From Alphaproteobacteria bacterium (GTDB lineage Bacteria; Pseudomonadota; Alphaproteobacteria; UBA828): DNA of 64,000 bases. Where the stretch lies: NCBI GenBank assembly GCA_963667785.2, contig CAXXMU010000006.1, positions 960,001 through 1,024,000 on the forward strand. The letters are read 5' to 3'. Position 1 is the first letter of the stretch. The number at the start of each line of letters is the position of its first letter. Position numbers and translations under genes: made by a program. This document shows positions 9,557 through 37,804 of the stretch, piece by piece. The notes below the pieces were generated by a model. The model was given only the letters and a program-made list of their open reading frames with translations. It searched no databases and was not told where the DNA came from.

Positions 9557-9580
9557 CCCCGCGTCCGGGGACGTCCGGGT

Positions 9581-10336
9581 TCACGGCGATGTCCGCCGCG
9601 CGGCCTCGTCCCCGGCGCGGACGCCTCCGTTCCCACATACCCGGCGGTCGGTGGCCCACGCCTCCACATCGTTCCCCCGGTACCGCACGCAGCCGCCAAG
9701 TTTGCAATACCAGGGACCCTCCCCGGTGGTCCGGTAGCGGGCCAGCGTGCTCGGCGACAGCCCCAGCAGTGCCGCCGCTTCGCGGGTGTCCATAAAATGC
9801 TGGTCCTCGCAGAGGCCGACCGGCTGTTCGGGCCCGGCGTCGCGATCTTCGCACCGGGCAGGCAGATCCGGAGACGGCAGCGGGGCGCCGGTCAGGATCG
9901 CCGGCATCGCGCCGGCGCGGGCGCGAATCTCACGCCACTCGGCAGGGCTCGCGTGCGACTTCATCGACGCGCGCACCGCTTCCACCGTCGCCAGCTTCGG
10001 CGACACGCCCGCCAGCAGCTGCGCGACAAAGGACGGGTTGCCCGTCGCTTCCTGTCCGAGCAGCGAACGCTTGACCCCCGTCACCTGAAGAAAGGCATCG
10101 ACTTCCCCGAGGAAGGCGGGGCCGGCCGGCGGCTCTCCCATGAAGGCGAGCGCCCGGTCCACCGTCCTGAGGCACGGACGGCGTCCGTCGCGCAGCGAGG
10201 CGACGAAGTCGCGGTCGCGGTACACGGCGGCGCCGAACGCCCCGGCGCTCATCCCCTTCCGGGCGCACCAGACCTCGATCGCCCGCAGAAACCGGGCCTC
10301 GAGGACGCCGCCGGGATCTGAGTTCGGTATGCCCAT
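9581..10336 (-). CDS. Regulator with two Cro-like HTH repeats and a C-terminal AlpA/excisionase HTH
   Basis: C-terminal FMDTREAAALLGLSPSTLARYRTTGEGPWYCKLGGCVRYRGNDVEAW; two similar N-terminal units of about 50 aa. Confidence 0.75.
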   Translation of the reverse strand: MGIPNSDPGGVLEARFLRAIEVWCARKGMSAGAFGAAVYRDRDFVASLRDGRRPCLRTVDRALAFMGEPPAGPAFLGEVDAFLQVTGVKRSLLGQEATGNPSFVAQLLAGVSPKLATVEAVRASMKSHASPAEWREIRARAGAMPAILTGAPLPSPDLPARCEDRDAGPEQPVGLCEDQHFMDTREAAALLGLSPSTLARYRTTGEGPWYCKLGGCVRYRGNDVEAWATDRRVCGNGGVRAGDEAARRTSP

Positions 10337-10944
10337 CCGGCATAGATAGGGGCGGCAGGAGAATCGCAAAACCGCTTCCGGTATGGCAAATCCTGCGAAT
10401 CATACGTCAGGCCCCGCCAGGCACCGCATGCCCCCTCAGAGCGGTGAAAAAAGTTTTGCCCAGTGCCTATGCGCCCCGAATGCTCCGGGCTGGAATGGGC
10501 TGAGAGGAACCGTACGGATTTGCCTCAATGAGGCCGGGGCGCGCACCCAGGATGTCGCCACTGATGCGGCAGGTCTGAAGACCATAGAGGGCGATGCCCG
10601 TCGTTCGGGCAATCGGCGTTCAGGCGATCGCGAACATGCGGAAGCGTCGATGTGGCGAAACCGGCACTCAGCTGGCTGACGCCGTGCGTGCCGCGAGGTC
10701 GAAGGGGGCGCTGCGGTGCCGCCGGGATTGACGCGGTTCACGCAGCCGTGCAGGAAATGGTCGATGTATGGAGACGGCGAGGCCATCGGCATATCTGGAC
10801 CGAAGCACGTGTTGCGAGAACGGTGGCGGCGCCCGACGAGCAACAGATTCCGCTGGTGCGCTTGGTGACGACCGGGAGGCTGGATCGACGAGCGATCATC
10901 TGATCGCTATGGCAGTATCTCCAGCTAGGGAGGCGAACCAAACG

Positions 10945-13900
10945 ATGACGGGGAGCAGGCCATTGGGTCCAGGCGATACGGGGCCAGGCAACGCAGCGGG
11001 GCTCGACGTATTTGCCCTCCGTGACAGCGTCGTCAACGAGTACAAGCGTTTCGCGACCTCCTTCACGACAATCCACGCACCAGACATCCGCGAACAGATC
11101 GAGGCAATCTACGCGGAGGATCGCTACTGGCCCGAGCCGCTCATTCAGATCAACCCGAGCTACAAACGTTCCACGGATGTCGGCACCTTGGTCGCGAATG
11201 GGATACTCCACCCAGGATGCGCAGATATTTTTGGCGAGAGCGGTCAGCCGCTGTCCCTCTACAAGCACCAGGAGCAGGCCATCGCGCTCGCGGCAGAGGG
11301 CGAGAGCTTTGTGGTGACCTCCGGCACGGGATCCGGGAAGTCGCTGTGCTTCTTTATCCCCATTGTCAGTTACGTGCTGGCTGCGCGCCGCACCGGTGGG
11401 CGGCGGCGCACGCATGCCATTGTCGTTTACCCGATGAATGCGCTCGCGAACTCCCAGATGGACGAGCTTGCAAAGTTCACCGACCAAGTGCCCGGAGACC
11501 AGTCGATCACGTTCGCCCGCTATACGGGACAAGAGGACGACCTGGAGCGAAAGCAGATCGCAGACCATCCTCCCGACATCCTTCTCACCAACTTCATGAT
11601 GCTGGAGCTCCTCATGACACGACAGGAGGAGCTCGACCGGCAGGTGATAGGAAACTGCGCCGGTCTACAGTTCCTCGTCCTGGACGAGCTGCACACCTAC
11701 CGCGGCCGTCAAGGCGCAGATGTAGCGTTGTTGGTGCGCCGCGTCCGTGAACGGCTGCGGCCTGAGAACCTGCTGTGCATCGGCACCTCTGCAACCATGG
11801 CGAGCGAGGGTTCTCACCAGGATAAGAGCCGAGTGGTTGCGGGCGTCGCTTCGAAACTCTTCGGGAGCGAGATCACAGAGAGCAACGTCATCGCGGAAAC
11901 CCTTGAGCGCATCACCGATCCGACGGCCACGGCAGATTCCGTAAAGCCGTCCCTCGGAGGCGCTATCGATGCCGGCGCACCGCTACACATGTCTGACGCG
12001 GCACTCCGAGAGCATCCGCTCGCTGTTTGGGTGGAAACGCGTCTAGGTGTCTCGTTTTCCGAGGCTGACCAGCGCTGGATTCGGGCCAGGCCCAGAACAG
12101 TGACCGAGGCAGTCGCAGCGCTCTCGGAGGAGTCAGGGCGAGCCGCCGCTGACTGTCGTAGCGTGCTGCGGGCTTTCCTTCTGGCTTCGAGCGACCCCGA
12201 GAAGGTACGGACCTCGAACCCCGATGACGGCGAGAAGAGCTTCTTTGCGTTCAAGCTCCACCAGTTTATCTCGGGTGCTGGCCACGCGTATGCGACGATC
12301 GAGCCGCCCGGAACGCGCAAAGTGACGGTCGATGGTCAACAGTTCCTGCCCGGCCACGCGGACAAGCGACTTTATGCCGTACATTTCTGTCGCGAATGTG
12401 GTCACGAGTATCATCCGGTGCGGTTGGTGCAGCAGGAGGAGGGGGCGGTCTTCCTCGCGCGCGACATTGACGATGCGCCACCGAGCGGGCCAAACGAGAC
12501 GGACGAAGATCCGTTGGAGACACGGACCGAGGGAGTGTTTGGTTTCTTGACGCTGGAGCCACGGAACGATCCCACGTTCACCTTCGCCGACCAAGACGAT
12601 GACTACCCTGAGACCTGGCTTGAGCTTGATGCAAACAACCGCACACGGCTCAAGAAGTACTACCGCGGTGCGCGCGCTCGTAGCTTCGTAGTCTCGCCCG
12701 ATGGACGTGTCGGTACAGGAACGAAAGTGTGGTTCCAGCCCGGAAAATTCCGGCTCTGCCTCCGTTGCGGGAACACCCAGGGCGGGGCCGCGCGCGATCG
12801 CACGCGTCTCGCCTCGCTGTCAGCCGAGGGGCGCAGTTCGGCAACCACCGTACTGGTCGGTAGTACGCTGCGCTGGATGCACGGCGCCGACTCAGTGCTG
12901 GCCCCCTACACTCGAAAGCTATTGGGCTTCACAGACAACCGACAGGACGCTGCGCTCCAAGCCGGTCATTTCAACGACTTTCTTTTTGTCAGCTTGGTGC
13001 GCGCGGGCTTTCTCGGCGCACTACGGGATGCGGGTTCGAACGGGCTCCGTAGCGACGAATTGGGAATTGCTCAGCAGCGAATGCTTGGATTTGACCGATC
13101 AGACCCGGAGATTCGCGCCGAATGGCTGCTTGAGCCGACGTTGCGCGGCTTTAATCTACAGGAGGCCGAGGGCACGCTTCGACAGGTGCTAGCTTATCGC
13201 ATTTGGTTCGATCAGCGACGTGGATGGCGATACACGAATCCGAACCTTGAGCAACTCGGCATGGTCCAAGTGGAGTACTTGGGTCTCGAGGAGCTCTCCA
13301 GGGACGACGACCTGTTTGCCGACTCGCCCCCTCTACTGAAGCATGCTGACCGCACTGTGCGGAAAGCGGTCTACCGCGAATTGCTTGACCACATGCGGAA
13401 GTGGATGGCGATCCGCAGCCAGGTTCTCGAAACTGCCGTTCTCGAACAGTTGGTCGCGAAGTCCCACAGTCGGCTTCGACCTCCCTGGGGACTCGGCATA
13501 GACGAGAAGCCGAGAGCCGCTCGCTGGTTGATGACTATCGCACCCACTCGTAAGGTGAACACGCTCCGTGACATGGACTTGATTGTGCGCGGCGGCTCAC
13601 GAAGCGGTCTCGGGCGAACGTTACGCTCAACAAGCCTTTGGGGTGGCGACGCAGCCATCCGCGACCTGAAGTCAGAGGATTTCGACAAGCTAGTCGAGGA
13701 TCTTCTCCGTGCAGGCGCGACACACGGCCTTCTATCGGAAGAGAACACGCCGTTTGATCGGTCGGGGTGGCGGCTCAACGATGCATGCATTCTGTTTCGA
13801 CTTGGCGATACAGCAGAGAACGGCGACGGTGCCGGGCAGAACGCATTTTTTTGCGACCTCTACGAGAATCTCGCACGGATGCTTCGCGCACCCATGCACC

Positions 13901-16287
13901 CGCTTTTCGGGTTCGAGGCGCGCGAGCACACCGCCCAGGTAAATCCCGACAACAGGGAAATCCGGGAGAAGCGCTTTCGCTTCGGCGATCGCGAGCGCGA
14001 AGAGCTAGCTACGGACGAGAAGCGACTCCGAGAGGTCGGCGAAGCAAATCGGTTTCTACCCGTTCTCTTTTGCTCGCCGACGATGGAGCTCGGCGTCGAC
14101 ATCGCGGCATTGAACGCCGTTCACATGCGGAACGTGCCACCTACGCCGGCAAACTATGCCCAACGCGGCGGCCGCGCGGGTCGAAGCGGGCAGGCTGCGC
14201 TGGTCATTACCTATGCGTCCTCTCAAAGCCCGCACGACCAATACTTCTTCCGCGATCCCAAAGCGATGGTCTACGGTGAAGTACGTGCCCCGATCTTGGA
14301 GCTCGCGAACCAGGACCTGATCGACAGCCATCTTCACGCAGTCTGGCTCTCGTGTGTTGACGAACGACTCGACCCGTGTATCGCGGAGCTGCTCGTACTT
14401 GGTGATTCTAGTCGTCCAATCGAGCCGGGTATCGGGGCAGCATTGCAAGACAAGCGCGTCGTGGTCTCGGCAGGCGAACGGGTTCGGCGCGTCCTCGATC
14501 TCGTCGCAGACGATCTCACACCTGAATCTGCGCCTTGGTACACGGGTCGAGACGCCTATTCAGATAAGGTCGTGGCGGATGCCGCGGAGCGCTTCGACGA
14601 AGCGTTCAATCGCTGGCGAGACCTTTTCGCCGCCGCCGAGATGCAGCGAGACGCCGCGCGGAGGATCATGGACGACTATGCGGTGGCCTACCAAGACAAG
14701 CGGGCAGCGCAGACTCGGCACGCGCAGGCTGTCGACCAGATCAACTTGCTCCAGCGTGGGACAAGCGCGCTCTCAAGCGACTTCTACACGTATCGCTACC
14801 TAGCTACAGAGGGCTTTCTACCTGGGTACAACTTCCCGAGATTGCCCCTCCTCGCGTACATTCCCGCAAGTCGGGATGGTCGTAGACAGCAGACGTACCT
14901 TCAGCGTCCGCGCTTCCTTGCGCTTGCCGAATTTGGCCCGCGCAGCCTCGTCTATCACGAAGGGCGTGCGTACCGGGTCGTACGAGCGCTGCTCTCCCTT
15001 GGTCATCGGGAGTCGGCGACACCCGATGCACAACTCCCCACTAAGGCCGTACGAACTTGCACGAACTGCGGTGCGGGACATTTCAGCGACGAGCTTTCGA
15101 TGTGCCATGTATGCGGAACATCCCTCGGCAACGCCGACGTTGTGGGCAACACATATCGAATTGAGAACGTTGCAACATATCCGGCCGAACATATCACCGC
15201 GAACGACGAAGAACGTCAGCGCCAAGGCTTCGACTTGCAGACCACGTTTGAATGGGCGATCCGCGACCAAGAGATTGACGTACGGCAGGCATCGGCGTCT
15301 GACGCGGAGGGCGAAATTGTTCGCATGGCGTACGGCGCGGGGGCGACGATCACCCGTCTTAATAAGGGTCTGCGCCGTAGAGCCAACAAGAAGATTCTCG
15401 GTTTCCGAATCGATCCGGTATCGGGGTACTGGGCCAAGGGCGTTGACGAGGACGCGGATGAGCACGCGCTCGACCCCACGGCCTCCCCTCGGCAATGGAT
15501 CGTCCCCTGTGTCCAGGATCGCAAGAATGCGCTCCTCTTCCGACCCAGCGGGAATTCGCTCTCACAGGTCACGCTGTCCACTGTGCAGCACGCGATCCTG
15601 CGTGGCATCGAGGCAGTGTTCCAACTAGAGGAAGGCGAAATACTCGCCGAACCGATGCCGACGCGTGATGTTCGGAACGGTTTCCTGCTTTACGAGGCCA
15701 CCGAAGGCGGCGCAGGCGTTCTGACACGGATCATCAGCCAAGAGATGAGCCTTGCCACCGTGGCGGAAAGGGCACTGGAGATCATGCATCTCTCTGTTGG
15801 TGGTGGTTATCTGCCCGATTCTCCATCGGGTCTCTCAGATCAACCGGAGACAACTTGCGTCGCGGCCTGCTATCGCTGCCTTATGTCTTACTACAATCAG
15901 CCCGACCACGAGAGTCTAGATCGCCGAGACGAGGACGCTCGCGCGATGCTGCTCCGTCTAGCCCGTGCCCGCACAACGACGCTCGACAGGCGGTCGTCAC
16001 AGCCAACCACCTGTGTGGATCGGGAAGGCTCGCGTGACGGGCGGTGGGATGCCGAGGCGTCGCAGCACGGAATTCCCGCACCTGATCCGGAGCCTCTACT
16101 GGCTGGCGAGCGTGCCGTGCGCTGCGTCTGGCGCAAACACTATGTTGCGGCGATTATCGACGAGGCCGATTGTCTGGCCACGCAGTCGATGGAAGACCTT
16201 GGCTTCGAGGTGATACGGTTTGGCGATCCCGCAAGCTGGAATACTGCCTTCGCACGTCTGGCTTCCGCTCTTGGGCGCGAGTCATGA
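10945..16287 (+). CDS. Large DEAD/DEAH helicase with C-terminal DUF1998 (YprA/DrmAB-like)
   Basis: SGTGSGKS, YPMNALANSQ, DELH, TSAT, TMELGVDI, QRGGRAGR; Zn motifs; EGGAG...CVAACYRCLMSYYNQ. Confidence 0.9.
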   Translation: MTGSRPLGPGDTGPGNAAGLDVFALRDSVVNEYKRFATSFTTIHAPDIREQIEAIYAEDRYWPEPLIQINPSYKRSTDVGTLVANGILHPGCADIFGESGQPLSLYKHQEQAIALAAEGESFVVTSGTGSGKSLCFFIPIVSYVLAARRTGGRRRTHAIVVYPMNALANSQMDELAKFTDQVPGDQSITFARYTGQEDDLERKQIADHPPDILLTNFMMLELLMTRQEELDRQVIGNCAGLQFLVLDELHTYRGRQGADVALLVRRVRERLRPENLLCIGTSATMASEGSHQDKSRVVAGVASKLFGSEITESNVIAETLERITDPTATADSVKPSLGGAIDAGAPLHMSDAALREHPLAVWVETRLGVSFSEADQRWIRARPRTVTEAVAALSEESGRAAADCRSVLRAFLLASSDPEKVRTSNPDDGEKSFFAFKLHQFISGAGHAYATIEPPGTRKVTVDGQQFLPGHADKRLYAVHFCRECGHEYHPVRLVQQEEGAVFLARDIDDAPPSGPNETDEDPLETRTEGVFGFLTLEPRNDPTFTFADQDDDYPETWLELDANNRTRLKKYYRGARARSFVVSPDGRVGTGTKVWFQPGKFRLCLRCGNTQGGAARDRTRLASLSAEGRSSATTVLVGSTLRWMHGADSVLAPYTRKLLGFTDNRQDAALQAGHFNDFLFVSLVRAGFLGALRDAGSNGLRSDELGIAQQRMLGFDRSDPEIRAEWLLEPTLRGFNLQEAEGTLRQVLAYRIWFDQRRGWRYTNPNLEQLGMVQVEYLGLEELSRDDDLFADSPPLLKHADRTVRKAVYRELLDHMRKWMAIRSQVLETAVLEQLVAKSHSRLRPPWGLGIDEKPRAARWLMTIAPTRKVNTLRDMDLIVRGGSRSGLGRTLRSTSLWGGDAAIRDLKSEDFDKLVEDLLRAGATHGLLSEENTPFDRSGWRLNDACILFRLGDTAENGDGAGQNAFFCDLYENLARMLRAPMHPLFGFEAREHTAQVNPDNREIREKRFRFGDREREELATDEKRLREVGEANRFLPVLFCSPTMELGVDIAALNAVHMRNVPPTPANYAQRGGRAGRSGQAALVITYASSQSPHDQYFFRDPKAMVYGEVRAPILELANQDLIDSHLHAVWLSCVDERLDPCIAELLVLGDSSRPIEPGIGAALQDKRVVVSAGERVRRVLDLVADDLTPESAPWYTGRDAYSDKVVADAAERFDEAFNRWRDLFAAAEMQRDAARRIMDDYAVAYQDKRAAQTRHAQAVDQINLLQRGTSALSSDFYTYRYLATEGFLPGYNFPRLPLLAYIPASRDGRRQQTYLQRPRFLALAEFGPRSLVYHEGRAYRVVRALLSLGHRESATPDAQLPTKAVRTCTNCGAGHFSDELSMCHVCGTSLGNADVVGNTYRIENVATYPAEHITANDEERQRQGFDLQTTFEWAIRDQEIDVRQASASDAEGEIVRMAYGAGATITRLNKGLRRRANKKILGFRIDPVSGYWAKGVDEDADEHALDPTASPRQWIVPCVQDRKNALLFRPSGNSLSQVTLSTVQHAILRGIEAVFQLEEGEILAEPMPTRDVRNGFLLYEATEGGAGVLTRIISQEMSLATVAERALEIMHLSVGGGYLPDSPSGLSDQPETTCVAACYRCLMSYYNQPDHESLDRRDEDARAMLLRLARARTTTLDRRSSQPTTCVDREGSRDGRWDAEASQHGIPAPDPEPLLAGERAVRCVWRKHYVAAIIDEADCLATQSMEDLGFEVIRFGDPASWNTAFARLASALGRES

Positions 16288-19070
16288 ACGAACTCGTCTA
16301 TGCACCCGGAAGCCTCGTCAGCGCTCGCGGACGGGAGTGGGTTGTTCTCAGCGGAAGCTCGGCGGAGACGCTCAGGGTTCGTCCTGTCACCGGATCCGAT
16401 GAAGATCGGACGTTAATCCACCTTCCGCTCGAGATCGAGCCGGTTCGTGAGGCTCGGTTCCCCTTGCCCAGCGCGCACCTGGTCGGCGGGCACGACTCCG
16501 CCTTGCTGCTTCGCGACGCGTTGCTACTCTCCCTAAGACGGGGTGCCGGACCCTTTCGGAGCATCGGCCAGATTTCGGTAGAACCGCGTGGATACCAAAT
16601 CGTGCCGCTTCTCATGGCGCTCAAACTCGACCCGGTACGTTTACTCATCGCGGACGACGTTGGAGTGGGGAAAACGATCGAGGCGTTGCTTATCGCTCGC
16701 GAGTTGCTCGACCGCGGCGACATCGATCGAACCGTCGTGCTCTGTCCGCCGCATCTCGTGGACCAATGGATCACCGAACTGGAGGTTCACTTCCATATCC
16801 GCGCAGTAGCCGTCACCGCCCGAACCGCGCGGCGCTTGGAACAGAGCGTACCGCCAGGACTAAGCATCTTTGCGGTGCATCCACACACCGTCGTCAGCCT
16901 CGACTACGTGAAGGCTCCCGAGAGACGAGACAACTTTCTCCAAGCGTGTCCAGATTTTGTGATTGTCGACGAGGCACACACGTGTGCCTCGTCGAGCCAG
17001 CGCCGGCATCAGCGGCACGAGCTGCTTCAAGGCTTAGCCAGCAGCGCCGCACGACACCTTGTTCTGCTAACGGCAACTCCCCATAGCGGCGACGATGCTG
17101 CCTTCTACCGTCTTCTCGCCTTGCTCGCCCCCGAATTCGAGCGCCTGGCAGAGGTCAGAGGTACGGAGCGCGATCGTCTACGTGAACGCCTCGCTAACCA
17201 TTTCGTCCAGAGACGACGCCCCGACATTGCGGAGTGGCATGAGGGCGACATCTTCCCGCGTCGCGAAACGAAAGAGCTCACCTACAGGTTGAGTGGAGCT
17301 TGGGAGGCCTTTTTCAACTCAGTCCTCGACTATTGCGCCGAAGTTGTCGAAACGGGCACCGGTGACGAGCAGAGGCAGCGCCTCAACTTTTGGGGAACGC
17401 TAGCTCTCTTACGTTGCACCGGGTCGAGCCCCGTTGCTGCCGTGTTGGCCCTGCGCACCCGTGCTGGCGAAGACTTAGGGGTCGAAACGCGCGAAGACCT
17501 TCTTGATCGCATTTTCGATGGCGATGTGGATTCACTCCTAACCGACGATGTGGAACCACCCTTAGGTGGTGAAGTTCCAGCGCTGGGACGACTGATAGAG
17601 CAGGCGGAGAGACTCGCGGGCCAAAGCGGTGATCCAAAACTGATAGCGGCGTCAGAGCATGTCTCCGAGTTGGTCGAGGCGGGATTTAACGTAGTGGTAT
17701 TTTGTCGATTTATCTCCACCGCCCACTACGTGGCCCGACACTTCCGCGAAAACATGACGGAAATTGTCGTCGGTGCTGTGACCGGTGAGATGTCGCCTGA
17801 AGAGCGGGAAGAGCGCGTGGCGTCACTCGGTGCAACACAAGGTACCAAGGTCTTGGTCGCGACAGACTGTCTTTCGGAGGGAATCAATCTACAGGAGCAC
17901 TTCGACGCTGTCGTTCACTATGATCTCTCGTGGAATCCAACGCGTCATGAGCAGCGGGAGGGGCGCGTCGATCGCTTCGGTCAGCCGAGCAACACAGTGC
18001 GCGCCACACTCCTTTATGGCATCGACAACCCGGTTGACGGTGCGGTACTTCAGGTCATCCTGCGTAAGGCGGCCCGCATTCGGGAGGAACTCGGCGTCCC
18101 GGTGCCCGTGCCGGACGAGAGTCACTCGCTCACGCAGGCTCTGCTCAAGGCCGTGCTCTTGCGTCGGCGGGGCCGCTCCGACGCCATCGCTGGCCGACAG
18201 CTTGAGTTGTTCGAGAGCAGCTGGGAGGACGCGAAGGCAAAGGCGAAGAGAAGCCGGACCATGTTCGCCCAGCGACGGATCAAGCCCGACGAGGTGCTGC
18301 CCGAGTGGCACAAGAGCCTCGCCGCAGTCGGTGGCCGAGACGACGTGGAGCGCTTCACGAACCGCGCTCTCGTCCGGCTCGGTTCAGGGCTTGAACCGTT
18401 CGGGCGGGGATTCAAGGTCCCGACGGCGGCACTGCCCGCTGACGTTCGCGAGCGTCTGGAGGCGGAAGACATAGCGGGCACGATTGCCATCGACTTCGCG
18501 TATCCCCCGGCGCGCGGATGCCGTCCTCTCCAGCGCAACCATCCCCTCATCGCGGTCCTCGCCGACGCGCTTCTAGGGAGGACCCTTTCGGTTGACGACA
18601 CCGACGCCTCCACCGGCGATCCCTCGGTCCTGGGGCGCGTTGGCTGCTGGATCTCGGAAGGAGTGCGTGGCCGGACGACGGTCGCGCTATTGCGGCTGCG
18701 GCACCAGCTCTTGTCACGCGCGCGGCACCGGGACACAACACTGATGGTCGAGGAGGCAGCGGCGTTAGCCTGGGTCGTCCCACGAACAAACGGACCGATC
18801 TCAGGGTCCGAAGCACTTTCACTGCTCCGACTTCCTCCTGTAGATGATCCCCCGCCGCATGTGCGGAAACGTGAGATCGCAAGAGCCCTCGACATGATCG
18901 AGGAGCGCACAGCGGATCTGGAGAATTTCGCGACGGCGCGAGCAGGAGCCTTGCTCGATGATCATTTGCGTATGCGCGAAGCTAGCAGAGCGGGCGGTAG
19001 CACGTCCGTCCAGGCCCTTCCGCGTCCCGATGTGATCGGCGTATACGTGCTCCTGCCCAGGCTGAGCTGA
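16284..19070 (+). CDS. SNF2-type helicase (DrmD-like)
   Basis: LIADDVGVGKT, DEAH, LTATPHSG, SEGINLQ, WNP...EQREGRVDR; ATGA overlap with previous gene. Confidence 0.9.
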   Translation: MNELVYAPGSLVSARGREWVVLSGSSAETLRVRPVTGSDEDRTLIHLPLEIEPVREARFPLPSAHLVGGHDSALLLRDALLLSLRRGAGPFRSIGQISVEPRGYQIVPLLMALKLDPVRLLIADDVGVGKTIEALLIARELLDRGDIDRTVVLCPPHLVDQWITELEVHFHIRAVAVTARTARRLEQSVPPGLSIFAVHPHTVVSLDYVKAPERRDNFLQACPDFVIVDEAHTCASSSQRRHQRHELLQGLASSAARHLVLLTATPHSGDDAAFYRLLALLAPEFERLAEVRGTERDRLRERLANHFVQRRRPDIAEWHEGDIFPRRETKELTYRLSGAWEAFFNSVLDYCAEVVETGTGDEQRQRLNFWGTLALLRCTGSSPVAAVLALRTRAGEDLGVETREDLLDRIFDGDVDSLLTDDVEPPLGGEVPALGRLIEQAERLAGQSGDPKLIAASEHVSELVEAGFNVVVFCRFISTAHYVARHFRENMTEIVVGAVTGEMSPEEREERVASLGATQGTKVLVATDCLSEGINLQEHFDAVVHYDLSWNPTRHEQREGRVDRFGQPSNTVRATLLYGIDNPVDGAVLQVILRKAARIREELGVPVPVPDESHSLTQALLKAVLLRRRGRSDAIAGRQLELFESSWEDAKAKAKRSRTMFAQRRIKPDEVLPEWHKSLAAVGGRDDVERFTNRALVRLGSGLEPFGRGFKVPTAALPADVRERLEAEDIAGTIAIDFAYPPARGCRPLQRNHPLIAVLADALLGRTLSVDDTDASTGDPSVLGRVGCWISEGVRGRTTVALLRLRHQLLSRARHRDTTLMVEEAAALAWVVPRTNGPISGSEALSLLRLPPVDDPPPHVRKREIARALDMIEERTADLENFATARAGALLDDHLRMREASRAGGSTSVQALPRPDVIGVYVLLPRLS

Positions 19071-19072
19071 GC

Positions 19073-22000
19073 ATGGCGCCTCGTCGAGGGAGCCCCGGCG
19101 AGGCTAGGATCGCCTTCGACGCCGTTTCGATCGTTGGCGGTCTGCTCGGGGCTGAATGGTTTGCGAAGGTGGCCCAGCTCCAAGCCGCCGCCCAAGAGCC
19201 AGCCGACTACGGCGTTCCAATGGGGCTTCACATCCGCGACGAGATTGCTCGGAGCTGGCGCATTGCCCAGGCGCGCTTTCGTGAGTTGGAGGCAGGTCGC
19301 GCCTCGGGGGGTGACGCCACCGCGCTTGCCGAGAGATTCGTTGAGGCGTTTCTCAGAGACGCACTATGTTTCACATCCTTAGTGCGGGCTGAGCCGAAGA
19401 TGATCGGCGATCAGGTTTATCCGGTCCGATTCTTCGCTCTCGAAGATCGAGTCCCCGTTGTAGTTGCCCCAGCGGGAGTGGGTCTTGACACCCCTCTGCC
19501 CGAGCTCGGGGATGAGTGGCGCCGGCGGAGCGCTTTTGGCCTCCTGCAGGAGACTCTGAACGCCTCTGGTGCCGCGCTTTGGGGTCTCGCGGTCGACGGA
19601 TTGTCCATACGGGTCGCGCGAGACAACGCGAGCCTCACGCGGCCGGCGTGGATCAATGCGGACCTCGACCAGATCTTTAGGGAGGACCTGTATCCCGACT
19701 TCGCCGCGCTTTGGCTGCTCGCCCATGAGTCACGATTCGGCCGGGCTGAGGATCCGCCGGAGATGTGCCCATTGGAGGTGTGGCGCGAAACCGGCCGGCA
19801 AGAGGGGACTCGAGCGCGAGACAAGCTGAGCGATGGCTTCCGGCAGACACTTGAAATTCTGGGACAGGGGTTCCTGTCCCACACCGCGAACACCAAGCTT
19901 CGTTCCGCGCTGCACGCGGGAGAGCTCACGAAGGAGCATTATTTCGGGCAACTTCTGCGGCTAGTCTACCGACTTGTCTTTCTGCTTACGGTCGAAGAGC
20001 GGAATTTGTTGCACCCGAGCGATGCATCCGCTTCCGCCCGTGATCTCTATACCAACGGATACGGTATACGTCGCCTTCGGGATCGGGCGATCCACGGAAG
20101 TGCCCACGACCGGCAAGGCGATCTCTGGCAGGCGGTCAAAATCGTCTTTCAGAGCGTCGCGGTTGGGGAGCCAAGACTTGGGCTGCCCGCCCTCGCTGGC
20201 CTGTTCGCGGTGGAAGAGTGCCCGGACCTCGATGCAGCGCAACTTGAAAACCGGGCGCTCCTCGGCGCTCTTTTCCATCTGGCGTGGCTGCGCGAGTCCT
20301 CGGGGCTCGCTCGCGTGAACTGGCGCGATATGGGTCCGGATGAGCTCGGCTACGTCTATGAGGGCCTGCTGGAGCTGGTTCCGCAAATCGGCGAGGACGG
20401 ACGTTCCTTCTTCTTCGCCAGCACAGAAGAAAGCAAGGGGCATGCACGGAAAGTAACCGGAAGCTACTACACCCCGGACGAACTCGTTCAGCGTCTCCTC
20501 GCGAGCGCCCTCGATCCCGTGGTAGAACAAACGGTCCAGGCACATCCCGACCGACCCGTTGACGCCCTTCTCGAGCTATCGATTGTTGATCCCGCCTGTG
20601 GGTCAGGACACTTCCTGCTCGCTGCGGCGCGTCGGCTAGCCGATCGCATCGCGCGCATCCGGGTGGGGGGTACGCCTACGCCCAACGACTACCAGCACGC
20701 TCTGCGCGACGTCGTTCGCCGTTGCGTTTACGGTGTCGATCAAAACCCGTTAGCCGTTGAGCTTTGCAAGGTGAGCCTTTGGATGGAATCGATTGATCCG
20801 GGCCTGCCGCTCACGTTTCTGGAGAGCCACATCCGGTGTGGCAATTCGCTGATTGGGACGAACCGCGCGCTAATGGACGAACATGTGCCTGACTCCGCAT
20901 GGGTCGTCCTAGAGGGGGACGACAAGGAGGTTACCAGATCACTTAAGCGGCTCAACAGGAAGGAGGCAGCCGGTGAACGGCGCCTTCCATTCGAAGCCCG
21001 AAACGAGATAGCCGCTCTGCGCGCCGACGTGCTGGCGATTGAACAAGCCCCTGACGTGGATGTCGCTGACTTGGCTGAGAAAACTCGAGAGTGGAAGGCG
21101 CTCTTGGCTTCGCAGGCCTACGAACACCAAAAACTCGTGGCGGACGCGTGGTGTGCTGCTTTCCTCTGGCCCAAGAATGAACCAGGCCCAGTCGTCGAAG
21201 CCGCGCCAACCACCGCCACGTGGCTCGCGCTTCGCAACAAGGATGCACCCCCTTCTTCTATACTTGTTGAGACAACGCAGCACATCGCCGAGGAGTACGG
21301 CCTTTTCCACTGGGAGCTGGCATTTCCGCACATCTTTGCGCGTGGAGGTTTCGACGTCGTGCTCGGCAACCCACCTTGGGAACGAGTTAAACTCCAGGAG
21401 CGAGAGTTCTTCGATAAGCGCGAGCCCGTCATAGCAAATGCGCGAAACGCTGCCGAGCGAAAGAAGCTCATCGCCGCGCTTCCGACCATGAATCCGGTTC
21501 TCTGGAAGGAGTGGAGCCGCGCAACACGCGTCGCACAAGGACAAAGCCATTTCATGCGACAATCCGGCCGCTACCCGCTCTGCGGAAAGGGCGACGTCAA
21601 CACTTACGCACTGTTTGCTGAGCACAATTGGAAGGTGCTGGCGCCTCGCGGTTGCGCAGGCTTCATCGTACCCGGCGGGATTGTCACCGACGATACGACG
21701 AAGGAGTATTTTCAGGCACTTCTTGACGGCAGTGCCCTTGCTAGCGTCCATCACTTCGAAAACGAGAGCCTCGTTTTCAAGGGCTTACATCACGCATATC
21801 GGTTCGTACTACTGACAGTTAGGGAATCCGATCAAGCCGACCTCGTTTTCTATGCAAGGCGCGCAGTCGATCTCGATGACAGCCGGCGGCACTTCTCGCT
21901 GACTCCTGCTGACTTTGCGACGCTGAACCCGAACACGCGCACCTGTCCCACGTTCAGATCACGCCGGGATGCAGAAATCAACTTGGCAATATACCGCCGA

Positions 22001-23017
22001 GCGGGCGTAATGTGGCGGGAGGGAGATCCGGACGGGAACCCATGGGGTGTGAGATTTCTGAGCCTATTTCATATGGCCAATGATTCCGGTTTGTTTCGTA
22101 CTACCGGCGAGTTGGTCTCGGGTGGTTGGAATCTGAACGCAGGCCGTTTCGAGAAAGACGAAAAGATTATGTTGCCCCTGTACGAGGGGAAGATGGTGCA
22201 CCTATACGATCATCGTTTCGGTACGTATGAAGGGCAGAGCAAGGCTCAGGCGAACCAAGGCAAGCTTCCCGAACTCGATCACGTTGCCCATGCCGATCCA
22301 AAGCGGGTAACGCTGCCGAGGTATTGGGTTGCGGACGACGAAGTGGCGGCGAGACTGGACAATACATGGGATAGGGATTGGCTGCTTGGTTGGAGGGACG
22401 TTACCGGTGCAGGGGTGTTAAGAACTGTCATCGCTTGTATCATCCCCAGAGCCGCTGTGAACCACAAGTTTCCGTTATTGATCCCGTCTTCTGATCCGCA
22501 ACTTGTTGCGAATCTTAGCGCAAACCTGTCCAGCATGCCATTTGACTACTGTGCCCGGCAGAAGGTCGGTGGATTAAGCCTGACCTACTTCACAATGCGA
22601 CAACTTCCAACAATCCATCCGCTGACTTACGGGAGGCCTGCGCCCTGGGAAACCTCGATCAGCATTCGGGACTGGTTCCTTCCCAGAATCCTCGAACTCA
22701 CCTTTACCACGTGGAATCTGAAGGCGTTCGCCGAAGATTGTGGCGATGACAGCCCGCCCTTCATCTGGGACCCTGAGCGCCGCAACCAAATCCGGTGCGA
22801 GATTGATGCAGCATTCTTCCATCTGTACGGAATTTCGCGGGATGATACTGCCTACATTCTCGACACCTTTTCAGTTCTTAAGCAGTCGGAGGAAAGGGTG
22901 CACGAAGAGTACCGAACGAAGCGCGTGGTGCTTGAGATTTATGACGCAATTGCGGCCGCTGCAAAGGAGGGTATGTCCTACGACTCTCCGCTCGGGCCGG
23001 CGAGGAGGATGACGTGA
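19073..23017 (+). CDS. Large N6-adenine DNA methyltransferase (Eco57I/type IIG, DrmMI-like)
   Basis: TGSYYTP, DPACGSGHFL (motif I), GFDVVLGNPPWE (motif IV), C-terminal TRD-like region. Confidence 0.9.
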   Translation: MAPRRGSPGEARIAFDAVSIVGGLLGAEWFAKVAQLQAAAQEPADYGVPMGLHIRDEIARSWRIAQARFRELEAGRASGGDATALAERFVEAFLRDALCFTSLVRAEPKMIGDQVYPVRFFALEDRVPVVVAPAGVGLDTPLPELGDEWRRRSAFGLLQETLNASGAALWGLAVDGLSIRVARDNASLTRPAWINADLDQIFREDLYPDFAALWLLAHESRFGRAEDPPEMCPLEVWRETGRQEGTRARDKLSDGFRQTLEILGQGFLSHTANTKLRSALHAGELTKEHYFGQLLRLVYRLVFLLTVEERNLLHPSDASASARDLYTNGYGIRRLRDRAIHGSAHDRQGDLWQAVKIVFQSVAVGEPRLGLPALAGLFAVEECPDLDAAQLENRALLGALFHLAWLRESSGLARVNWRDMGPDELGYVYEGLLELVPQIGEDGRSFFFASTEESKGHARKVTGSYYTPDELVQRLLASALDPVVEQTVQAHPDRPVDALLELSIVDPACGSGHFLLAAARRLADRIARIRVGGTPTPNDYQHALRDVVRRCVYGVDQNPLAVELCKVSLWMESIDPGLPLTFLESHIRCGNSLIGTNRALMDEHVPDSAWVVLEGDDKEVTRSLKRLNRKEAAGERRLPFEARNEIAALRADVLAIEQAPDVDVADLAEKTREWKALLASQAYEHQKLVADAWCAAFLWPKNEPGPVVEAAPTTATWLALRNKDAPPSSILVETTQHIAEEYGLFHWELAFPHIFARGGFDVVLGNPPWERVKLQEREFFDKREPVIANARNAAERKKLIAALPTMNPVLWKEWSRATRVAQGQSHFMRQSGRYPLCGKGDVNTYALFAEHNWKVLAPRGCAGFIVPGGIVTDDTTKEYFQALLDGSALASVHHFENESLVFKGLHHAYRFVLLTVRESDQADLVFYARRAVDLDDSRRHFSLTPADFATLNPNTRTCPTFRSRRDAEINLAIYRRAGVMWREGDPDGNPWGVRFLSLFHMANDSGLFRTTGELVSGGWNLNAGRFEKDEKIMLPLYEGKMVHLYDHRFGTYEGQSKAQANQGKLPELDHVAHADPKRVTLPRYWVADDEVAARLDNTWDRDWLLGWRDVTGAGVLRTVIACIIPRAAVNHKFPLLIPSSDPQLVANLSANLSSMPFDYCARQKVGGLSLTYFTMRQLPTIHPLTYGRPAPWETSISIRDWFLPRILELTFTTWNLKAFAEDCGDDSPPFIWDPERRNQIRCEIDAAFFHLYGISRDDTAYILDTFSVLKQSEERVHEEYRTKRVVLEIYDAIAAAAKEGMSYDSPLGPARRMT

Positions 23018-24258
23018 GGCGATTCCAGCTTCGTGAGATCCGCGTCGACAACTACCGATGCTTCAAAGAGTTGAAGCTTTCACTAGAGGACGATACCACC
23101 GTACTCTTCGCGGAGAACGGCGGCGGAAAAACCGCATTGTTGACGGCTGTCGCAATGGGTCTCGCCGCATTCCAGAGGGGTTCGCCGAAGAAGCTAAAGC
23201 TCGAAGCAGGGCGCGATCCCAGAATGCTCACTCTCGACGAAAAGGGGCGACGCGAAGCAGTAGGTGAGTGCAAGGTCGCGTGGACTGCCGACGTGGGAGA
23301 AACAGAATCCGTGTCTTGGTCAACGACGACTCGGCCCGCGTCCGGACGCACTACGAACCAACACCAAGCAATCCTCGAGGCTCTGGAACGATTACGGGTT
23401 CCGAGAGATCGGTGGCCATTATTCGCTTGGTACGGCGTCGATCGACTCGGACGTCGCCGCAACGGACGGCGCAGGGTTGACCGTACCAAGGACCGGTGGG
23501 AGGCCTACGCCTCCGCGCTCGATCCGAACCTCGATGAGGCCCCATTGCTCCAATGGCTCCAGGACGAGATTCTCGGAGACGTGGTCCGGAGGCGGCAGGA
23601 CGAACCGGAGCGGTTCTTCCATGCGTCTGTGATGAACGCAACGGTCCTAGCGACGCCCGGCGTAACGAACGCTTGGTACGACCCGGTTGAACAGGGTCCG
23701 ATGGTGCGCTTCGAGAACGGACAGGTGGCGCCGTGGTCCGAACTGTCAGACGGATACCATGTGTTCATTGCCCTGGTTGCCGACATCGCCCGCCGCGCGG
23801 TCATGCTCAATGAGATCGACGGGGCTGAAGCGCCTGCAAGAGTGGAGGGCGTCGTACTCATTGACGAACTCGATCTCCACCTACACCCGCGATGGCAGCG
23901 CATTGCGCTTCCGCACCTTCGCAAAGCATTCCCGAGACTGCAGTTTGTCATCACCACACACTCGCCGCAGATATTGAGCAGCGCCGAGAATCGCCAAGTT
24001 CGCCGGCTCTTGGACGGAAAGCTTCAGGAAGACCACGTGCTCGTGGAGGGTAGGGATACTAACGCAATCCTTCGAGAGTACATGCTCACCGAAGACCGTG
24101 ACGAAGAAGGAACCCGGGCTCTGCGGGAACTCCACAATTGCATCGACCAAGGTCGTCGCAGAGAGGCCGAAGAGCTGTACCAGGTACTACTTGAGCGCTG
24201 GGGCGACCTCGATCCCACGTTAATTCGAACGAAGGCACTCATGGACCCGGAGGAGTAA
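23014..24258 (+). CDS. ABC-type ATPase (Septu/retron PtuA-like)
   Basis: AENGGGKT Walker A, LSDGY signature, VLIDELDLHLHPRWQ, TTHSPQ; GTGA overlap with the methyltransferase. Confidence 0.85.
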   Translation: MRRFQLREIRVDNYRCFKELKLSLEDDTTVLFAENGGGKTALLTAVAMGLAAFQRGSPKKLKLEAGRDPRMLTLDEKGRREAVGECKVAWTADVGETESVSWSTTTRPASGRTTNQHQAILEALERLRVPRDRWPLFAWYGVDRLGRRRNGRRRVDRTKDRWEAYASALDPNLDEAPLLQWLQDEILGDVVRRRQDEPERFFHASVMNATVLATPGVTNAWYDPVEQGPMVRFENGQVAPWSELSDGYHVFIALVADIARRAVMLNEIDGAEAPARVEGVVLIDELDLHLHPRWQRIALPHLRKAFPRLQFVITTHSPQILSSAENRQVRRLLDGKLQEDHVLVEGRDTNAILREYMLTEDRDEEGTRALRELHNCIDQGRRREAEELYQVLLERWGDLDPTLIRTKALMDPEE

Positions 24259-24259
24259 A

Positions 24260-25003
24260 GTGCGTGGCATACGGAAGCCTCGGCGTCCGAGCGATGCCTA
24301 TCCGAATGGTCAAGCGCAAGTAAGCCTCCGTCAAGCAGAGAACGCCTATCTAGCAGCACTTCCGACGGCACCCGATCCTGTGTCCTTTGCGCGCTCAGAA
24401 TTCGATCAGCTGGATAAGCCAAAGCTTCGGGCAGTGATGTATCGGGAACAGCGATCTCTTTGCATATTTTGCGAACGGCGAGTCTCGGAGGGCCATCCAA
24501 CGCCTCGGATCGATCACTGGTACCCGCTGAGCTGCAATCCCAATCTTGCGCTCCAATGGACCAACTTACATCTATCCTGCTCCTCGCTTGAGACCTGCGA
24601 CTCTGCCAAGGACAACCACCCTTTCGCAGCCATGCCTTTGCCCGTGAATTTTCGTTACGAAGACTTCGTTGGCTTCACGAGCGGCGGAGAAATTTACGTT
24701 CGCTCGGATGTCCCATTGCCGAATGCTACTCGCCAAGCGTTGAAGCTCGCAATTGAAGATTTTCCTGCTGGCCCTCAACTTCAGCGGAGCATCATCAACC
24801 TGAACCATCCGGCCTTGGTCGCGGCGCGGGCAGCACAGGTTGATGCCGAGCGCACACGCCTTCAGAAGGCTTTCAGGAATACAACTGCAACAAGGGTGCA
24901 GCGCAATCAGCGGGCCACTCAGCTACTCGGCCAGCATCCGCGTCCCGCGTTCGTGAGCATCCGTGTCGCTTGGCTTCGAAAGACACTGGGACGAGGTCGG
25001 TGA
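24260..25003 (+). CDS. HNH endonuclease (PtuB/TIGR02646-like)
   Basis: EQRSLCIFCER...IDHWYP...WTNLHLSC...CDSAK. Confidence 0.8.
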   Translation: MRGIRKPRRPSDAYPNGQAQVSLRQAENAYLAALPTAPDPVSFARSEFDQLDKPKLRAVMYREQRSLCIFCERRVSEGHPTPRIDHWYPLSCNPNLALQWTNLHLSCSSLETCDSAKDNHPFAAMPLPVNFRYEDFVGFTSGGEIYVRSDVPLPNATRQALKLAIEDFPAGPQLQRSIINLNHPALVAARAAQVDAERTRLQKAFRNTTATRVQRNQRATQLLGQHPRPAFVSIRVAWLRKTLGRGR

Positions 25004-25767
25004 TGCTCGCGGCGGTTACGATCACCCGTCTGGAGAAGGCTGCAACCGACAATGGTTTCGACCTCAATCTTGAACATACGGACGACTGGCTCTCTTTCGG
25101 TAGTAGTCAGACCTCGATGCGGATTTGGCTAACAGCCTTGGGAGATTCGGGAGTTGTTGGAGCCACGTCACGGGCGGACGTGCTCGACAGTCTATCGGGC
25201 TTTGGCGTGATGTTCACCAAGTTACTCCCGACCGGCGCAGCCGGCGCGCGGCGCGCCAATGACGTTGCCACGCTCCATCAATTCCTGCGTCGTGCGTTCC
25301 AGCTTTCGCGTACACTGCCGGACGCTCTGTTGCAGGAGTTTGAGGGTGAAATTTCGAACCTGTGCCGCACGACGGAAGCCGAGCGCTTGGTTATCCGGCG
25401 AGTCGGCCAAGACATCTTCCGCCGCGGCTTGTTCGAATTCTGGGACGGTCGGTGTGCGATCAGCAGCCTCGCCGTTCCCGAACTCCTCCGCGCGAGCCAC
25501 ATCAAGCCTTGGGCCGACTGCGATACGGACGCGGAGCGTCTCGATGTCTTCAACGGTTTGTTGCTGGCACCCCATTTCGATGCGGCATTTGATTCCGGTT
25601 TCATGACAATCGCAGAGGACGGAACGGTGTTGCTCTCCGATACTCTCCATTCTGGCACCCGGTCGGTTCTGGGTCTTGATGGATCGCTGAAGCTCCGCGG
25701 ACTGCACCGCGCTCACGAGCGTTACCTGCCATGGCATCGATCCAAGATATTCCAAAAAAATGACTAG
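25003..25767 (+). CDS. HNH endonuclease with unknown N-terminal domain (type IV restriction-like)
   Basis: RVGQDIFR...CAISSL...ASHIKPW...NGLLL...FDSG; TGATG overlap with the previous gene. Confidence 0.85.
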   Translation: MLAAVTITRLEKAATDNGFDLNLEHTDDWLSFGSSQTSMRIWLTALGDSGVVGATSRADVLDSLSGFGVMFTKLLPTGAAGARRANDVATLHQFLRRAFQLSRTLPDALLQEFEGEISNLCRTTEAERLVIRRVGQDIFRRGLFEFWDGRCAISSLAVPELLRASHIKPWADCDTDAERLDVFNGLLLAPHFDAAFDSGFMTIAEDGTVLLSDTLHSGTRSVLGLDGSLKLRGLHRAHERYLPWHRSKIFQKND

Positions 25768-25840
25768 AGTACGATTCCTTCTGAAAAACCAGAGGCTTAC
25801 GCCGGATCAAACAGGGATCTCGATCAAATGTCGGTCTCGG

Positions 25841-25898
25841 TGGTTGCGAGCCCCCGCAACCAAAGAAGCCCCTGAAAACATTGATGTTTTCGGGGGCT
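25841..25898. other. Candidate element boundary: att-like palindrome followed by a terminator-like hairpin
   Basis: TGGTTGCG-AGCCCC-CGCAACCA (25841-25862); hairpin AGCCCCTGAAAACA-TTGA-TGTTTTCGGGGGCT (25867-25898). Confidence 0.45.
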
Positions 25899-26455
25899 CT
25901 TCGATTCCAGATATTGGCTGCATTTCGCGCGATCAACACATAGTCAACACCGATGCGCGGGCGCAGACTCGTGGCCGGCCCGTGTTGAGCGTTCGAGGGC
26001 GCGAGGCCGGCGCCGTTGCTTCGCATGGCTGGGCCGCCACCGATCGCCGGGACGCGATCCAGTGCAAAGGCTGTCATTCGCCGGGGTATCGGCGGGCGCC
26101 TTCGATTCCCGCGAGGCTGCCGGCGGTTTGGGCCGGGGTGGACGAGCACCCTCACAGTGCAGTGGGGGCAGGGTGTGAGGTGCATGCGCCGGGCCTCGTC
26201 GGTTTGCGGGGTCCGCGGTCCGCCGGGGTTTGGCGCGCGGGGCGACGCGGTTCGGTATAGAGGTAACGGGTCGGCAGGCGCGAGACCACCGGCAGGACTC
26301 AGCGCGGCGCGCGAGACGGGCAACGAGTCGAACGCCGGAGGCAACGGGCGGTCTGCGACCTAGTGGGCGGTCCGAGCCATCGTCCACGCGGCTCGATTTG
26401 CTGTACGCAGTGGCATGTATTTGGATAGTCGCCAGCCTGACGAAACGGAGAAGCC

Positions 26456-37736: not shown

Positions 37737-37804
37737 GGGAAATTATATCCTTCACTAAGCAGAGTCGGCTTGCTACAATGTGATTGTTCAACGAGGACAG
37801 TGAC

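Follow-up and report, generated by a model that had tools for sequence, protein, structure and literature searches.

A predicted ARMADA Type I operon ending in an HNH_2 gene and carrying a Septu pair as putative cargo

The 64,000-nt stretch of the alphaproteobacterial contig CAXXMU010000006.1 analysed here (hereafter, the window) contains six co-oriented genes at positions 10945–25767, which are designated g1 to g6. This block is probably an ARMADA Type I operon from a clade in which the operon ends in an HNH_2 nuclease gene, with the slot between the methyltransferase gene (armB) and the HNH_2 gene holding a complete Septu system, PtuAB, as a self-sufficient layer of defence. Judging from sequence comparison, PtuAB is stable cargo in an intra-operon slot and not a substitute for a core nuclease, because sister loci keep the core with the slot empty or filled by unrelated modules. 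PtuAB also appears to be the commonest and oldest occupant of the slot in the clade of the window. Since a description of the three-gene core appeared in 2025 and Septu was already known, the block is no longer the best candidate for an undescribed system, as an earlier note on this DNA had supposed. The conserved HNH_2 end and the cargo slot are not mentioned in the available parts of the 2025 description (Bell et al. 2025, PMC12458937).

Composition of the operon and identity of its core

The open reading frame (ORF) listing of the window contains the following six plus-strand genes, together with the low-GC block formed by them:

10945..16287, plus strand: g1, armC-like, YprA-family helicase, 1780 aa
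16284..19070, plus strand: g2, armA-like, BrxHII/RapA-like SNF2 helicase, 928 aa
19073..23017, plus strand: g3, armB-like, PglX-like N6-adenine DNA methyltransferase, 1314 aa
23014..24258, plus strand: g4, ptuA, Septu ABC-type ATPase, 414 aa
24260..25003, plus strand: g5, ptuB, Septu HNH nuclease, 247 aa
25003..25767, plus strand: g6, terminal HNH_2 nuclease gene, 254 aa
10400..26000, no strand: low-GC block corresponding to the six genes, from GC content and between-genome conservation

The ORF coordinates and the junction sequences confirmed the co-orientation, overlaps and gaps described in the earlier note. Namely, g1 and g2 overlap by ATGA (16284–16287), g3 and g4 by GTGA (23014–23017), with the ptuA start sitting in the methylase stop, and g5 and g6 by TGATG (25001–25005), while gaps of 2 nt (19070/19073) and 1 nt (24258/24260) separate g2 from g3 and g4 from g5. 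The longest ORF of g1 begins at 10768, which makes the Met at 10945 its residue 60. The start at 10945 is considered sound because the similarity to homologues from related loci begins at residues 52–62 of the longest ORF and the sequence GGGAGG is located 11 nt upstream of the ATG. The GC content is approximately 0.54–0.65 over the six genes versus approximately 0.70 in both flanks, with shifts near 10.2–10.8 kb and 25.8–26.1 kb. A scan of positions 10300–26300 gave one promoter-like site versus 3.3 expected and 12 terminator-like sites versus 12.4 expected.

ARMADA Type I has been described as a YprA homologue encoded first, a BrxHII-like helicase and a PglX-like methyltransferase (PMC12458937, available parts). 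The genes g1–g2–g3 are predicted to be ARMADA Type I in the order armC–armA–armB, because their domains and gene order match this description and their relatives lie on its Type I contigs. In particular, contigs labelled “ARMADA Type I helicase” in Table S1 of that paper coincide, by contig accession and not by protein identifier, with loci L072 (ASRX01000019.1), L056 (CP043491.1), L070 (RAVZ01000103.1), L071 (SSMQ01000029.1) and L030 (VZQQ01000001.1) of the neighbourhood survey reported below. The identity of g1 to the helicases of these loci is 62–70% over approximately 1760 residues, and L056 and L030 also contain PtuAB and the HNH_2 gene. The guess of the earlier note that the core may be ARMADA-like was thus right, the type being I, and its view of the core as related to DISARM without being DISARM was borne out by the domain and model scores.

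Analysis of g1 using Pfam revealed the domains DEAD (1.8e-27), Helicase_C (1.2e-07) and MZB, formerly DUF1998 (2.5e-08); MZB was present in all 46 aligned g1 homologues. The protein contains the motif GTGSGKS, motif II in the form DELH and five CxxC pairs (zinc motifs), and it is 60–84% identical, over the full length, to the helicases of 60+ related loci (tblastn). Its top PADLOC matches were DruE models (1.4e-85), while DrmA models matched partially (5.4e-18). The earlier note had described g1 as a DEAH helicase with fused DrmA/B-like domains. Motif II does not fit the DEAH label; the fusion of helicase and DUF1998 in one protein does hold, although this protein is DruE-like rather than DrmA-like.

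In g2, Pfam found SNF2-rel_dom (3.4e-15) and Helicase_C (2.2e-19), and the motifs GVGKT and DEAH are present. The PADLOC model PDLC02853 for DpdE matched g2 end to end (3e-179; residues 4–926 versus 3–972 of 985), followed by DrmD (2.1e-74). The NCBIfam models gave 282.8 bits for DrmD (NF038317), under the cutoff of 610, and an E-value of 1.2e-36 for RapA. Because PDLC02853 covers g2 completely, PADLOC-DB 2.0 may label ArmA-like helicases of ARMADA as DpdE. The methyltransferase g3 was assigned to Eco57I (1.1e-20) and N6_Mtase (1.4e-09) by Pfam and to DrmMI (7.1e-69) and type IIG restriction–modification models by PADLOC; it contains the S-adenosylmethionine-binding motif DPACGSGHF at residue 506 and NPPW at residue 766. 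At least 7138 of 8000 scored candidates were homologous to g3 at E ≤ 0.001, and the 119 best matches (window protein excluded) were 76–84% identical and equal in length.

The next two genes are, by model and motif matches, a full-length Septu pair. The PADLOC PtuA model (3.4e-92) spans residues 5–414 of the 414 residues of g4. Pfam assigned g4 to AAA_21, AAA_15 and AAA_23, and its translation contains a P-loop NGGGKT, Walker B VLIDEL, LSDG and TTHS. For g5, the PtuB models of PADLOC and NCBIfam gave 1e-24 and 1.4e-17, the latter under the cutoff, and the PtuB residues C68, C71, H86, N102, C107 and C113 do not vary among 29 aligned rows. PtuA proteins linked to ARMADA are at least 52% identical to that of the window (tblastn, related loci), and the nearest plasmid PtuA is 32.6% identical, all of the 131 matching records in 72,556 plasmids being below 60%. 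One plasmid match was an ordinary stand-alone PtuA/PtuB pair beside integrases with no helicase or methylase nearby. It has been reported that Septu cleaves tRNA-Tyr (PMC13096335, available parts). A type I-A retron was considered and rejected: no RVT domain was found in the six genes or 28 flanking ORFs, Rfam gave no match within 10945–25767, and g4 scored 201.9 bits with the NCBIfam retron-type PtuA model, under its cutoff of 500. No PLD domain, UvrD-type helicase or reverse transcriptase was found among the six proteins using Pfam, which agrees with the absence of DrmC, UvrD and reverse transcriptase reported in the earlier note. Both of the HNH genes that it listed are present, with the correction that they belong to separate families, PtuB-type and HNH_2.

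The last gene, g6, was attributed to the HNH_2 family (PF13391, 6.6e-11) by Pfam and to the “HNH” model PDLC04132 (3.5e-27) by PADLOC. A PDB sequence search matched its residues 114–252 to 6yex, VcaM4I (5.1e-20). The entry 6ymg is given as “EVE-HNH endonuclease VcaM4I” in Table S2 of the ARMADA paper (PMC12458937, available parts), and 6ymg and 6yex have an identical sequence. Modeling with AlphaFold 2 from 43 homologues led to a two-domain model with a predicted local distance difference test score (pLDDT) of 83.8. Foldseek matched the model to VcaM4I (1.8e-08) and then to TagI (“Modification dependent”, 1.8e-02), with a whole-chain TM-score of 0.43 and a root-mean-square deviation of approximately 18; for the N-terminal domain, scores in the ESM Atlas were at most 0.80, which is the chance level. 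The motifs SHIKPW, NGL and HFDAAFD were found in g6. Its N-terminal alpha/beta domain of approximately 110 aa (pLDDT 86–95 in the model) was not recognised as an EVE, SRA or PUA reader by Foldseek or in the ESM Atlas. Among the 120 best matches to residues 1–112, this domain is nearly always fused to HNH_2 in proteins of approximately 254–270 aa, which fits either a Type IV enzyme or an ARMADA subunit.

The cargo slot and the history of its occupants

The neighbourhood survey was performed by a search of genome contigs with an alignment of 18 methylase proteins, taking a 10 kb flank on each side. The best 80 of 253 methylase relatives were retained and represent 79 distinct loci, many of them from metagenome-assembled genomes (MAGs); since the sample is methylase-anchored and limited to the best 80 of 253, it is biased to close relatives. 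The six window proteins were compared with these loci, designated by L numbers, using tblastn, and “empty” or “degraded” states were called from the high-scoring segment pairs (HSPs).

The methylase 3' end is contained in 67 of the 79 loci, and in 60 of these 67 a same-strand g6 homologue follows downstream, irrespective of the cargo and always as the last gene. Of the loci lacking it, L029 has 10 kb of downstream sequence, no g1 and a methylase that is 40% identical; only 3.4–4.1 kb of downstream sequence is available for L042, L057 and L064, and only 0.4–1.4 kb for L036, L059 and L060. Two further loci (L002 and L044) have g6, their methylase end being unmapped by the counting rule. The gap between g1 and g2 never exceeds 59 nt (n = 71) and that between g2 and g3 exceeds 300 nt in 3 of 76 loci, whereas the gap between g3 and the HNH_2 gene is longer than 300 nt in 53 of 60 (median 2044 nt, maximum 5825 nt). 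Neither upstream of g1 nor downstream of g6 was any gene family common to more than 4 of the 53–55 loci examined, and the window flanks did not match the 79 related loci, the sole hits being antisense of g6. These gap sizes and unshared flanks allow us to define the conserved unit as running from armC to the HNH_2 gene, with one variable junction. As shown by this sequence comparison, the slot is the single variable junction of the operon.

The slot contains PtuAB (hits to both proteins) in 28 of the 60 loci, at most 300 nt in 7 and other cargo in 25. Thus 28 of the 60 evaluable loci, which belong to at least seven phyla, have the six genes in identical order, and the rare co-occurrence of PtuAB with this core, which the earlier note had named among the findings that would speak against its idea, is not what the survey shows. 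The cargo was characterised using 78 ORFs from slots that were long or did not contain PtuAB. Of these ORFs, 32 were scanned with Pfam, 18 with PADLOC and 15 with NCBIfam, and the remainder were labelled by blastp to the scanned subset, on which the slot classes partly rest. The occupants other than PtuAB were as follows:

L041, operon strand: Drt1a reverse transcriptase-nitrilase (PADLOC E = 0, full length)
L022, operon strand: DarG (2.8e-133)
L024 and L058, slot: Macro protein in L024, DarT fragment in L058
L024, L049 and L067, slot: PDC-M56A/B
L038, L066, L069 and L078, slot: YhcG/DUF1016 PD-(D/E)xK nuclease (PDC-S02), split in L047
L017, slot: PDC-S19/DUF3644
L017, L024, L041 and L067, slot: proteins with Schlafen AlbA_2 and HATPase_c_4, and a related protein in L055
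L074, slot: Schlafen and PLD-like protein
15 loci, e.g., L018:13892–16380, slot: small ORF (140–200 aa), then a protein of approximately 650–690 aa, the commonest alternative cargo

The last pair was found in L018, L039, L043, L050, L053, L054, L055, L058, L066, L069, L070, L071, L072, L075 (split copy) and L077. Fourteen of the larger proteins form one blastp family. Their annotation is weak: PADLOC gave LmuB (5.2e-11) and PDC-M68B (1.2e-09), NCBIfam gave TrlF or SMC-related models at approximately 1e-4, DUF2326 was found in the L075 copy, and no Pfam family was found for the L018 pair. The combination of a small ORF and a ~660-aa ATPase may be an undescribed ATPase-based defence pair. In two loci the cargo is stacked: a PDC-M11A-like gene and an ASCH gene precede PtuAB in L037, and a YhcG fragment precedes it in L068. 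All slot ORFs with an assigned family are located on the operon strand, and the minus-strand slot ORFs had no match.

Degraded states were also found. In L021 the core is intact, and only remnants of PtuA (residues 4–70) and PtuB (residues 113–245) are left. In L032 (Spirochaetia; 6654–13204) an insertion of approximately 2.5 kb interrupts the methylase between residues 264 and 252; the inserted DNA carries an IS66-family transposase gene (1.4e-59) and an ORF whose product has a DruA domain (PF14236, 2.7e-49), and PtuA, PtuB and HNH_2 are intact downstream.

The core phylogeny was built from g2 and g3 using FastTree (57 rows; 23 loci in which a single HSP covered less than 85% of g2 or g3 were dropped). 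The window falls within a clade of 26 rows (support 100) comprising 23 Septu rows, two empty ones (L016 and L028) and L036, which ends at a contig edge. L056, whose sister is the empty L051, also contains Septu, and remnants of Septu in L021 are located beside the empty L045 and L073. The Septu label requires 6 changes on this tree versus a mean of 18.8 after shuffling, and 6 was reached in none of 500 shuffles. The PtuA tree (IQ-TREE quick mode; 27 loci, the window and two plasmid Septu outgroups with very long branches) placed the 28 ARMADA-linked PtuA proteins in one clade (SH-aLRT 99). Its branching repeats that of the core tree: L056, then L068, L030, L033, L035 and L037, then L031, then a tight group. 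Pairwise distances of the core correlate with those of PtuA and PtuB (r = 0.89, 22 rows) and with those of HNH_2 (r = 0.95 with 22 rows, 0.75 with 48 rows), each value being reached in none of 2000 permutations. Such co-divergence shows co-inheritance and not interaction, because relatedness and linkage alone would yield it. The comparison thus shows, at the level of sequence, that the Septu cargo has been inherited with the core over a long divergence.

Among L001–L035, the six-gene block has a protein identity of 70–86% across Acidobacteriota, Gamma- and Alphaproteobacteria, Latescibacterota and Spirochaetota, and the flanks differ. This high identity between distant genomes with differing flanks suggests that the whole block was recently transferred horizontally as one unit.

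Proposed mode of action and alternative explanations

The following mode of action is proposed. ArmB would methylate host DNA on adenine, and incoming DNA that lacks this methylation would be the direct target of the two helicases and a nuclease, for which the C-terminal domain of ArmC, the HNH_2 protein or both are candidates. PtuAB, translated from the transcript of the core, would form a self-sufficient second layer; once triggered, its ATPase-controlled HNH nuclease would stop the infected cell.

Several points weigh against this proposal. In the available parts of the ARMADA paper, phage-protection tests concern Type II only, and for Type II in E. coli all four genes were needed and protection was direct and non-abortive (PMC12458937); both results thus concern Type II alone. 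The same source gives ArmC proteins a C-terminal Vsr-type nuclease, marked “active?” for Type I in Table S2, and cites the PDB entries 3hrl and 3r3p for this type of domain. The C-terminus of g1 (residues ~1696–1780, approximately 85 residues) was modelled with AlphaFold from 46 homologues as an alpha/beta domain with pLDDT above 90. However, a Vsr match was found in none of the 46 homologues using Pfam with E up to 10, the best hit of a Foldseek search with this domain had a non-significant E of 0.28, with 3r3p_A (E 4.7) and 3hrl (E 5.3) among the weak ones. A PDB sequence search with the domain gave unrelated proteins at a best E of 0.44. The Vsr-type identity is therefore a candidate taken from the paper that Pfam, PDB and Foldseek could not confirm. 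The action of HNH_2 together with the core is likewise a proposal. The co-divergence of PtuAB with the core, the single PtuA clade and the coupling at both ends also fit an integrated module. The 79 closest methylase-anchored loci say nothing about the rest of ARMADA Type I, and frameshifts occur in the long-read MAG loci L002, L011 and L023, because of which some “degraded” calls may be assembly errors.

Alternatively, PtuAB could be a guard, held inactive by ARMADA or monitoring ARMADA or its methylation, that would respond abortively to the disabling of ARMADA by a phage inhibitor, in the manner of PARIS, which senses Ocr beside BREX, or of PrrC with EcoprrI. We consider this unlikely for the window. 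It would agree with the translational coupling of the cassette to core genes at both ends, with the stable co-inheritance and co-divergence of PtuAB and with the grouping of the ARMADA-linked PtuA proteins in one clade, whose identity to the window protein is 52% or more versus at most 32.6% for the best of the 131 plasmid records. Many alternative occupants are also of an abortive or toxin type (DarTG, DRT1, Schlafen proteins, ABC ATPases), and the logic is already in print for BREX-embedded modules (PMC12839542, available parts). However, PtuA matches stand-alone models end to end with no extra domain, nothing sequence-specific ties PtuAB to the core, and linkage by itself would produce the co-divergence. 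L032 is a single case in which the methylase is split while PtuA, PtuB and HNH_2 are intact. Given that the slot is empty in some loci and filled by unrelated modules in others, any guard relation would have to be generic and not specific to PtuAB. The same variability bears on the replacement of the nuclease effector by PtuAB that the earlier note had put forward, in which PtuAB, alone or with HNH_2, would be the nuclease arm in place of DrmC. The lack of a PLD nuclease among the six genes, the unconfirmed Vsr-type nuclease of ArmC and the position of PtuAB inside the operon could be taken in favour of such an integrated effector, which nevertheless seems very improbable: the core and HNH_2 occur without cargo in 7 of 60 loci and with unrelated cargo in 25, L021 keeps an intact core with PtuA/PtuB remnants only, and Septu acts alone elsewhere (the plasmid pair; PMC13096335, available parts). 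Nor does the core appear to lack nuclease candidates of its own, as had been supposed, given the conserved HNH_2 gene and the C-terminal nuclease that the ARMADA paper assigns to ArmC (PMC12458937, available parts). That separate systems came to lie side by side in a defence island by chance, without significance as an operon, is given almost no credence. The window is indeed rich in defence and mobile genes, a TrwC relaxase gene preceding the operon and a CRISPR-Cas locus following it; yet 28 loci from at least seven phyla show this gene order with these junctions, their flanks being unconserved, and the number of Septu changes on the core tree is far below that of the shuffled trees.

A separate question is whether g6 belongs to ARMADA; it may serve this clade of ARMADA as a nuclease or be a Type IV enzyme resident in the operon. 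As an autonomous modification-dependent enzyme of Type IV, it would be a third layer against modified phage DNA and not an ARMADA subunit, which is possible, although we hold it to be the less probable account. Its solved relatives lean this way, the sole significant ones being the modification-dependent VcaM4I and TagI, with which it shares the layout of an N-terminal domain followed by HNH_2, and HNH Type IV enzymes inside BREX loci are documented (PMC12839542, available parts). On the other side, the N-terminal domain is not recognisable as an EVE, SRA or PUA reader, and a free-standing enzyme would be expected to appear and disappear as the cargo does. Pointing towards the ARMADA nuclease are the constancy of g6, found in 60 of 67 loci irrespective of the cargo, its invariable place at the operon end and the correlation of its divergence with that of the core (r = 0.75–0.95). 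A more far-reaching and rather doubtful picture can be drawn in which HNH_2 is a true fourth subunit and the effector nuclease, the slot is a docking bay whose cargo is co-transcribed and licensed, and PtuAB is a co-evolved fail-safe, so that the six genes make one two-stage system. If this were true, the PtuAB fail-safe would fire when ARMADA is blocked or overrun.

For the preferred reading, an ARMADA Type I operon with Septu as independent cargo, the implications are the following. A conserved fourth gene, encoding an HNH_2 nuclease, is suggested for a clade of ARMADA Type I, which is described as a three-gene system in the available parts of its paper. The slot can be regarded as a natural experiment, in which one core is combined with Septu, DRT1, DarTG, YhcG nuclease or Schlafen modules, or with nothing, and a comparison of these natural variants would allow independent layers to be told from guards among embedded “backup” modules. 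It is also a place to seek new defence genes, such as the pair of a small ORF and a ~660-aa ATPase found in 15 loci.

Surroundings of the operon and comparison with known systems

The other features annotated in the window are listed below:

4325–5149, plus strand: PDDEXK_4 nuclease, upstream of the operon
5724–8762, minus strand: TrwC relaxase with a helicase domain, upstream of the operon
9581–10369, minus strand: HTH_17 protein, upstream of the operon
28646–30944, minus strand: CRISPR array of approximately 30 repeats with a period of approximately 73 nt, 19 of them matched by Rfam CRISPR-DR16 at the gathering score
31189–31494, minus strand: cas2, adjoining the CRISPR array
31491–33167, minus strand: cas4-cas1 fusion
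34210–37296, minus strand: cas3-like gene with HD and helicase domains
37784–38791, strand not given: IS1595-family transposase, beyond the cas genes
44075–44167, minus strand: tRNA-Ser(GCT)
53319–53518, plus strand: tandem glycine riboswitch (Rfam RF00504, 63 and 39.7 bits)

The rest of the window was found to contain no att-type repeat matching the tRNA-Ser region. The glycine riboswitch is located in a high-GC region and is unrelated to the operon.

No title or abstract describing a composite of ARMADA and Septu was found in the literature search, in which a review with a single occurrence of each term was the sole paper to contain ARMADA, Septu and YprA. Like the operon, class 1 DISARM (DrmA, DrmB, DrmC, DrmD, DrmMI) combines an adenine methylase with two helicases, one of the SNF2 type and one bearing DUF1998. 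Unlike in DISARM, the helicase and DUF1998 of the window are fused and nearer to DruE than to DrmA. An assignment to this class was rejected: there are no separate DrmA and DrmB and no DrmC PLD nuclease, and the DrmD score is under its cutoff (282.8 versus 610). Druantia was also rejected, since, apart from the DruE-like g1, no DruA-D, DruH or DruM/F/G partner was found in the six genes or the scanned flanks. The Septu pair of the window is similar to known ones in its full-length PtuA, the PtuB gene 1 nt away and the conserved HNH and zinc residues, and differs from them in being located inside the operon of another system, translationally coupled on both sides, and in the separate clade formed by ARMADA-linked PtuA. 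Similarly, g6 shares the HNH_2 catalytic domain and two-domain layout with VcaM4I and TagI; unlike these, it has a shorter N-terminal domain (approximately 110 aa) in which no EVE or SRA reader was recognised, and it is fixed at the end of an ARMADA operon.

The closest known system is compared at the level of both its types. ARMADA Type I has the same three proteins in the same order, with YprA first. The available text and supplementary tables of its paper, figures apart, contain no mention of a fourth HNH gene, a cargo slot or PtuA/Septu; the main hosts given in the available parts are Actinomycetota and Pseudomonadota, whereas the clade of the window is found mostly in Acidobacteriota, Gammaproteobacteria and Myxococcota; and the C-terminal Vsr nuclease of the paper was unconfirmed in g1. 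ARMADA Type II (ArmA-ArmB-ArmC-ArmD) is similar in its four-gene logic and in a last gene with an extra nuclease-type domain. It differs in the reversed order and in its fourth gene, which encodes a RelE-GajB-like helicase and not HNH_2, and no cargo slot is described for it in the available parts of the paper.

The closest parallel to the slot in the literature is provided by BREX and BREX-related loci, which hold embedded “auxiliary and backup” effectors, namely HNH proteins, PD-(D/E)xK proteins, dyads of OLD-ABC and HNH, and Schlafen-kinase-wHTH proteins, proposed to be a backup of the core against phage counter-defence (PMC12839542, available parts). The available text of this work, which surveys BREX types 1–6 and the DUF499-based “BR” systems, contains no mention of ARMADA, YprA, DISARM, Septu or PtuA. 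The same kinds of cargo are found there inside the operon with core genes on either side; unlike those loci, the slot of the window is a single fixed junction bordered by the conserved HNH_2 gene.

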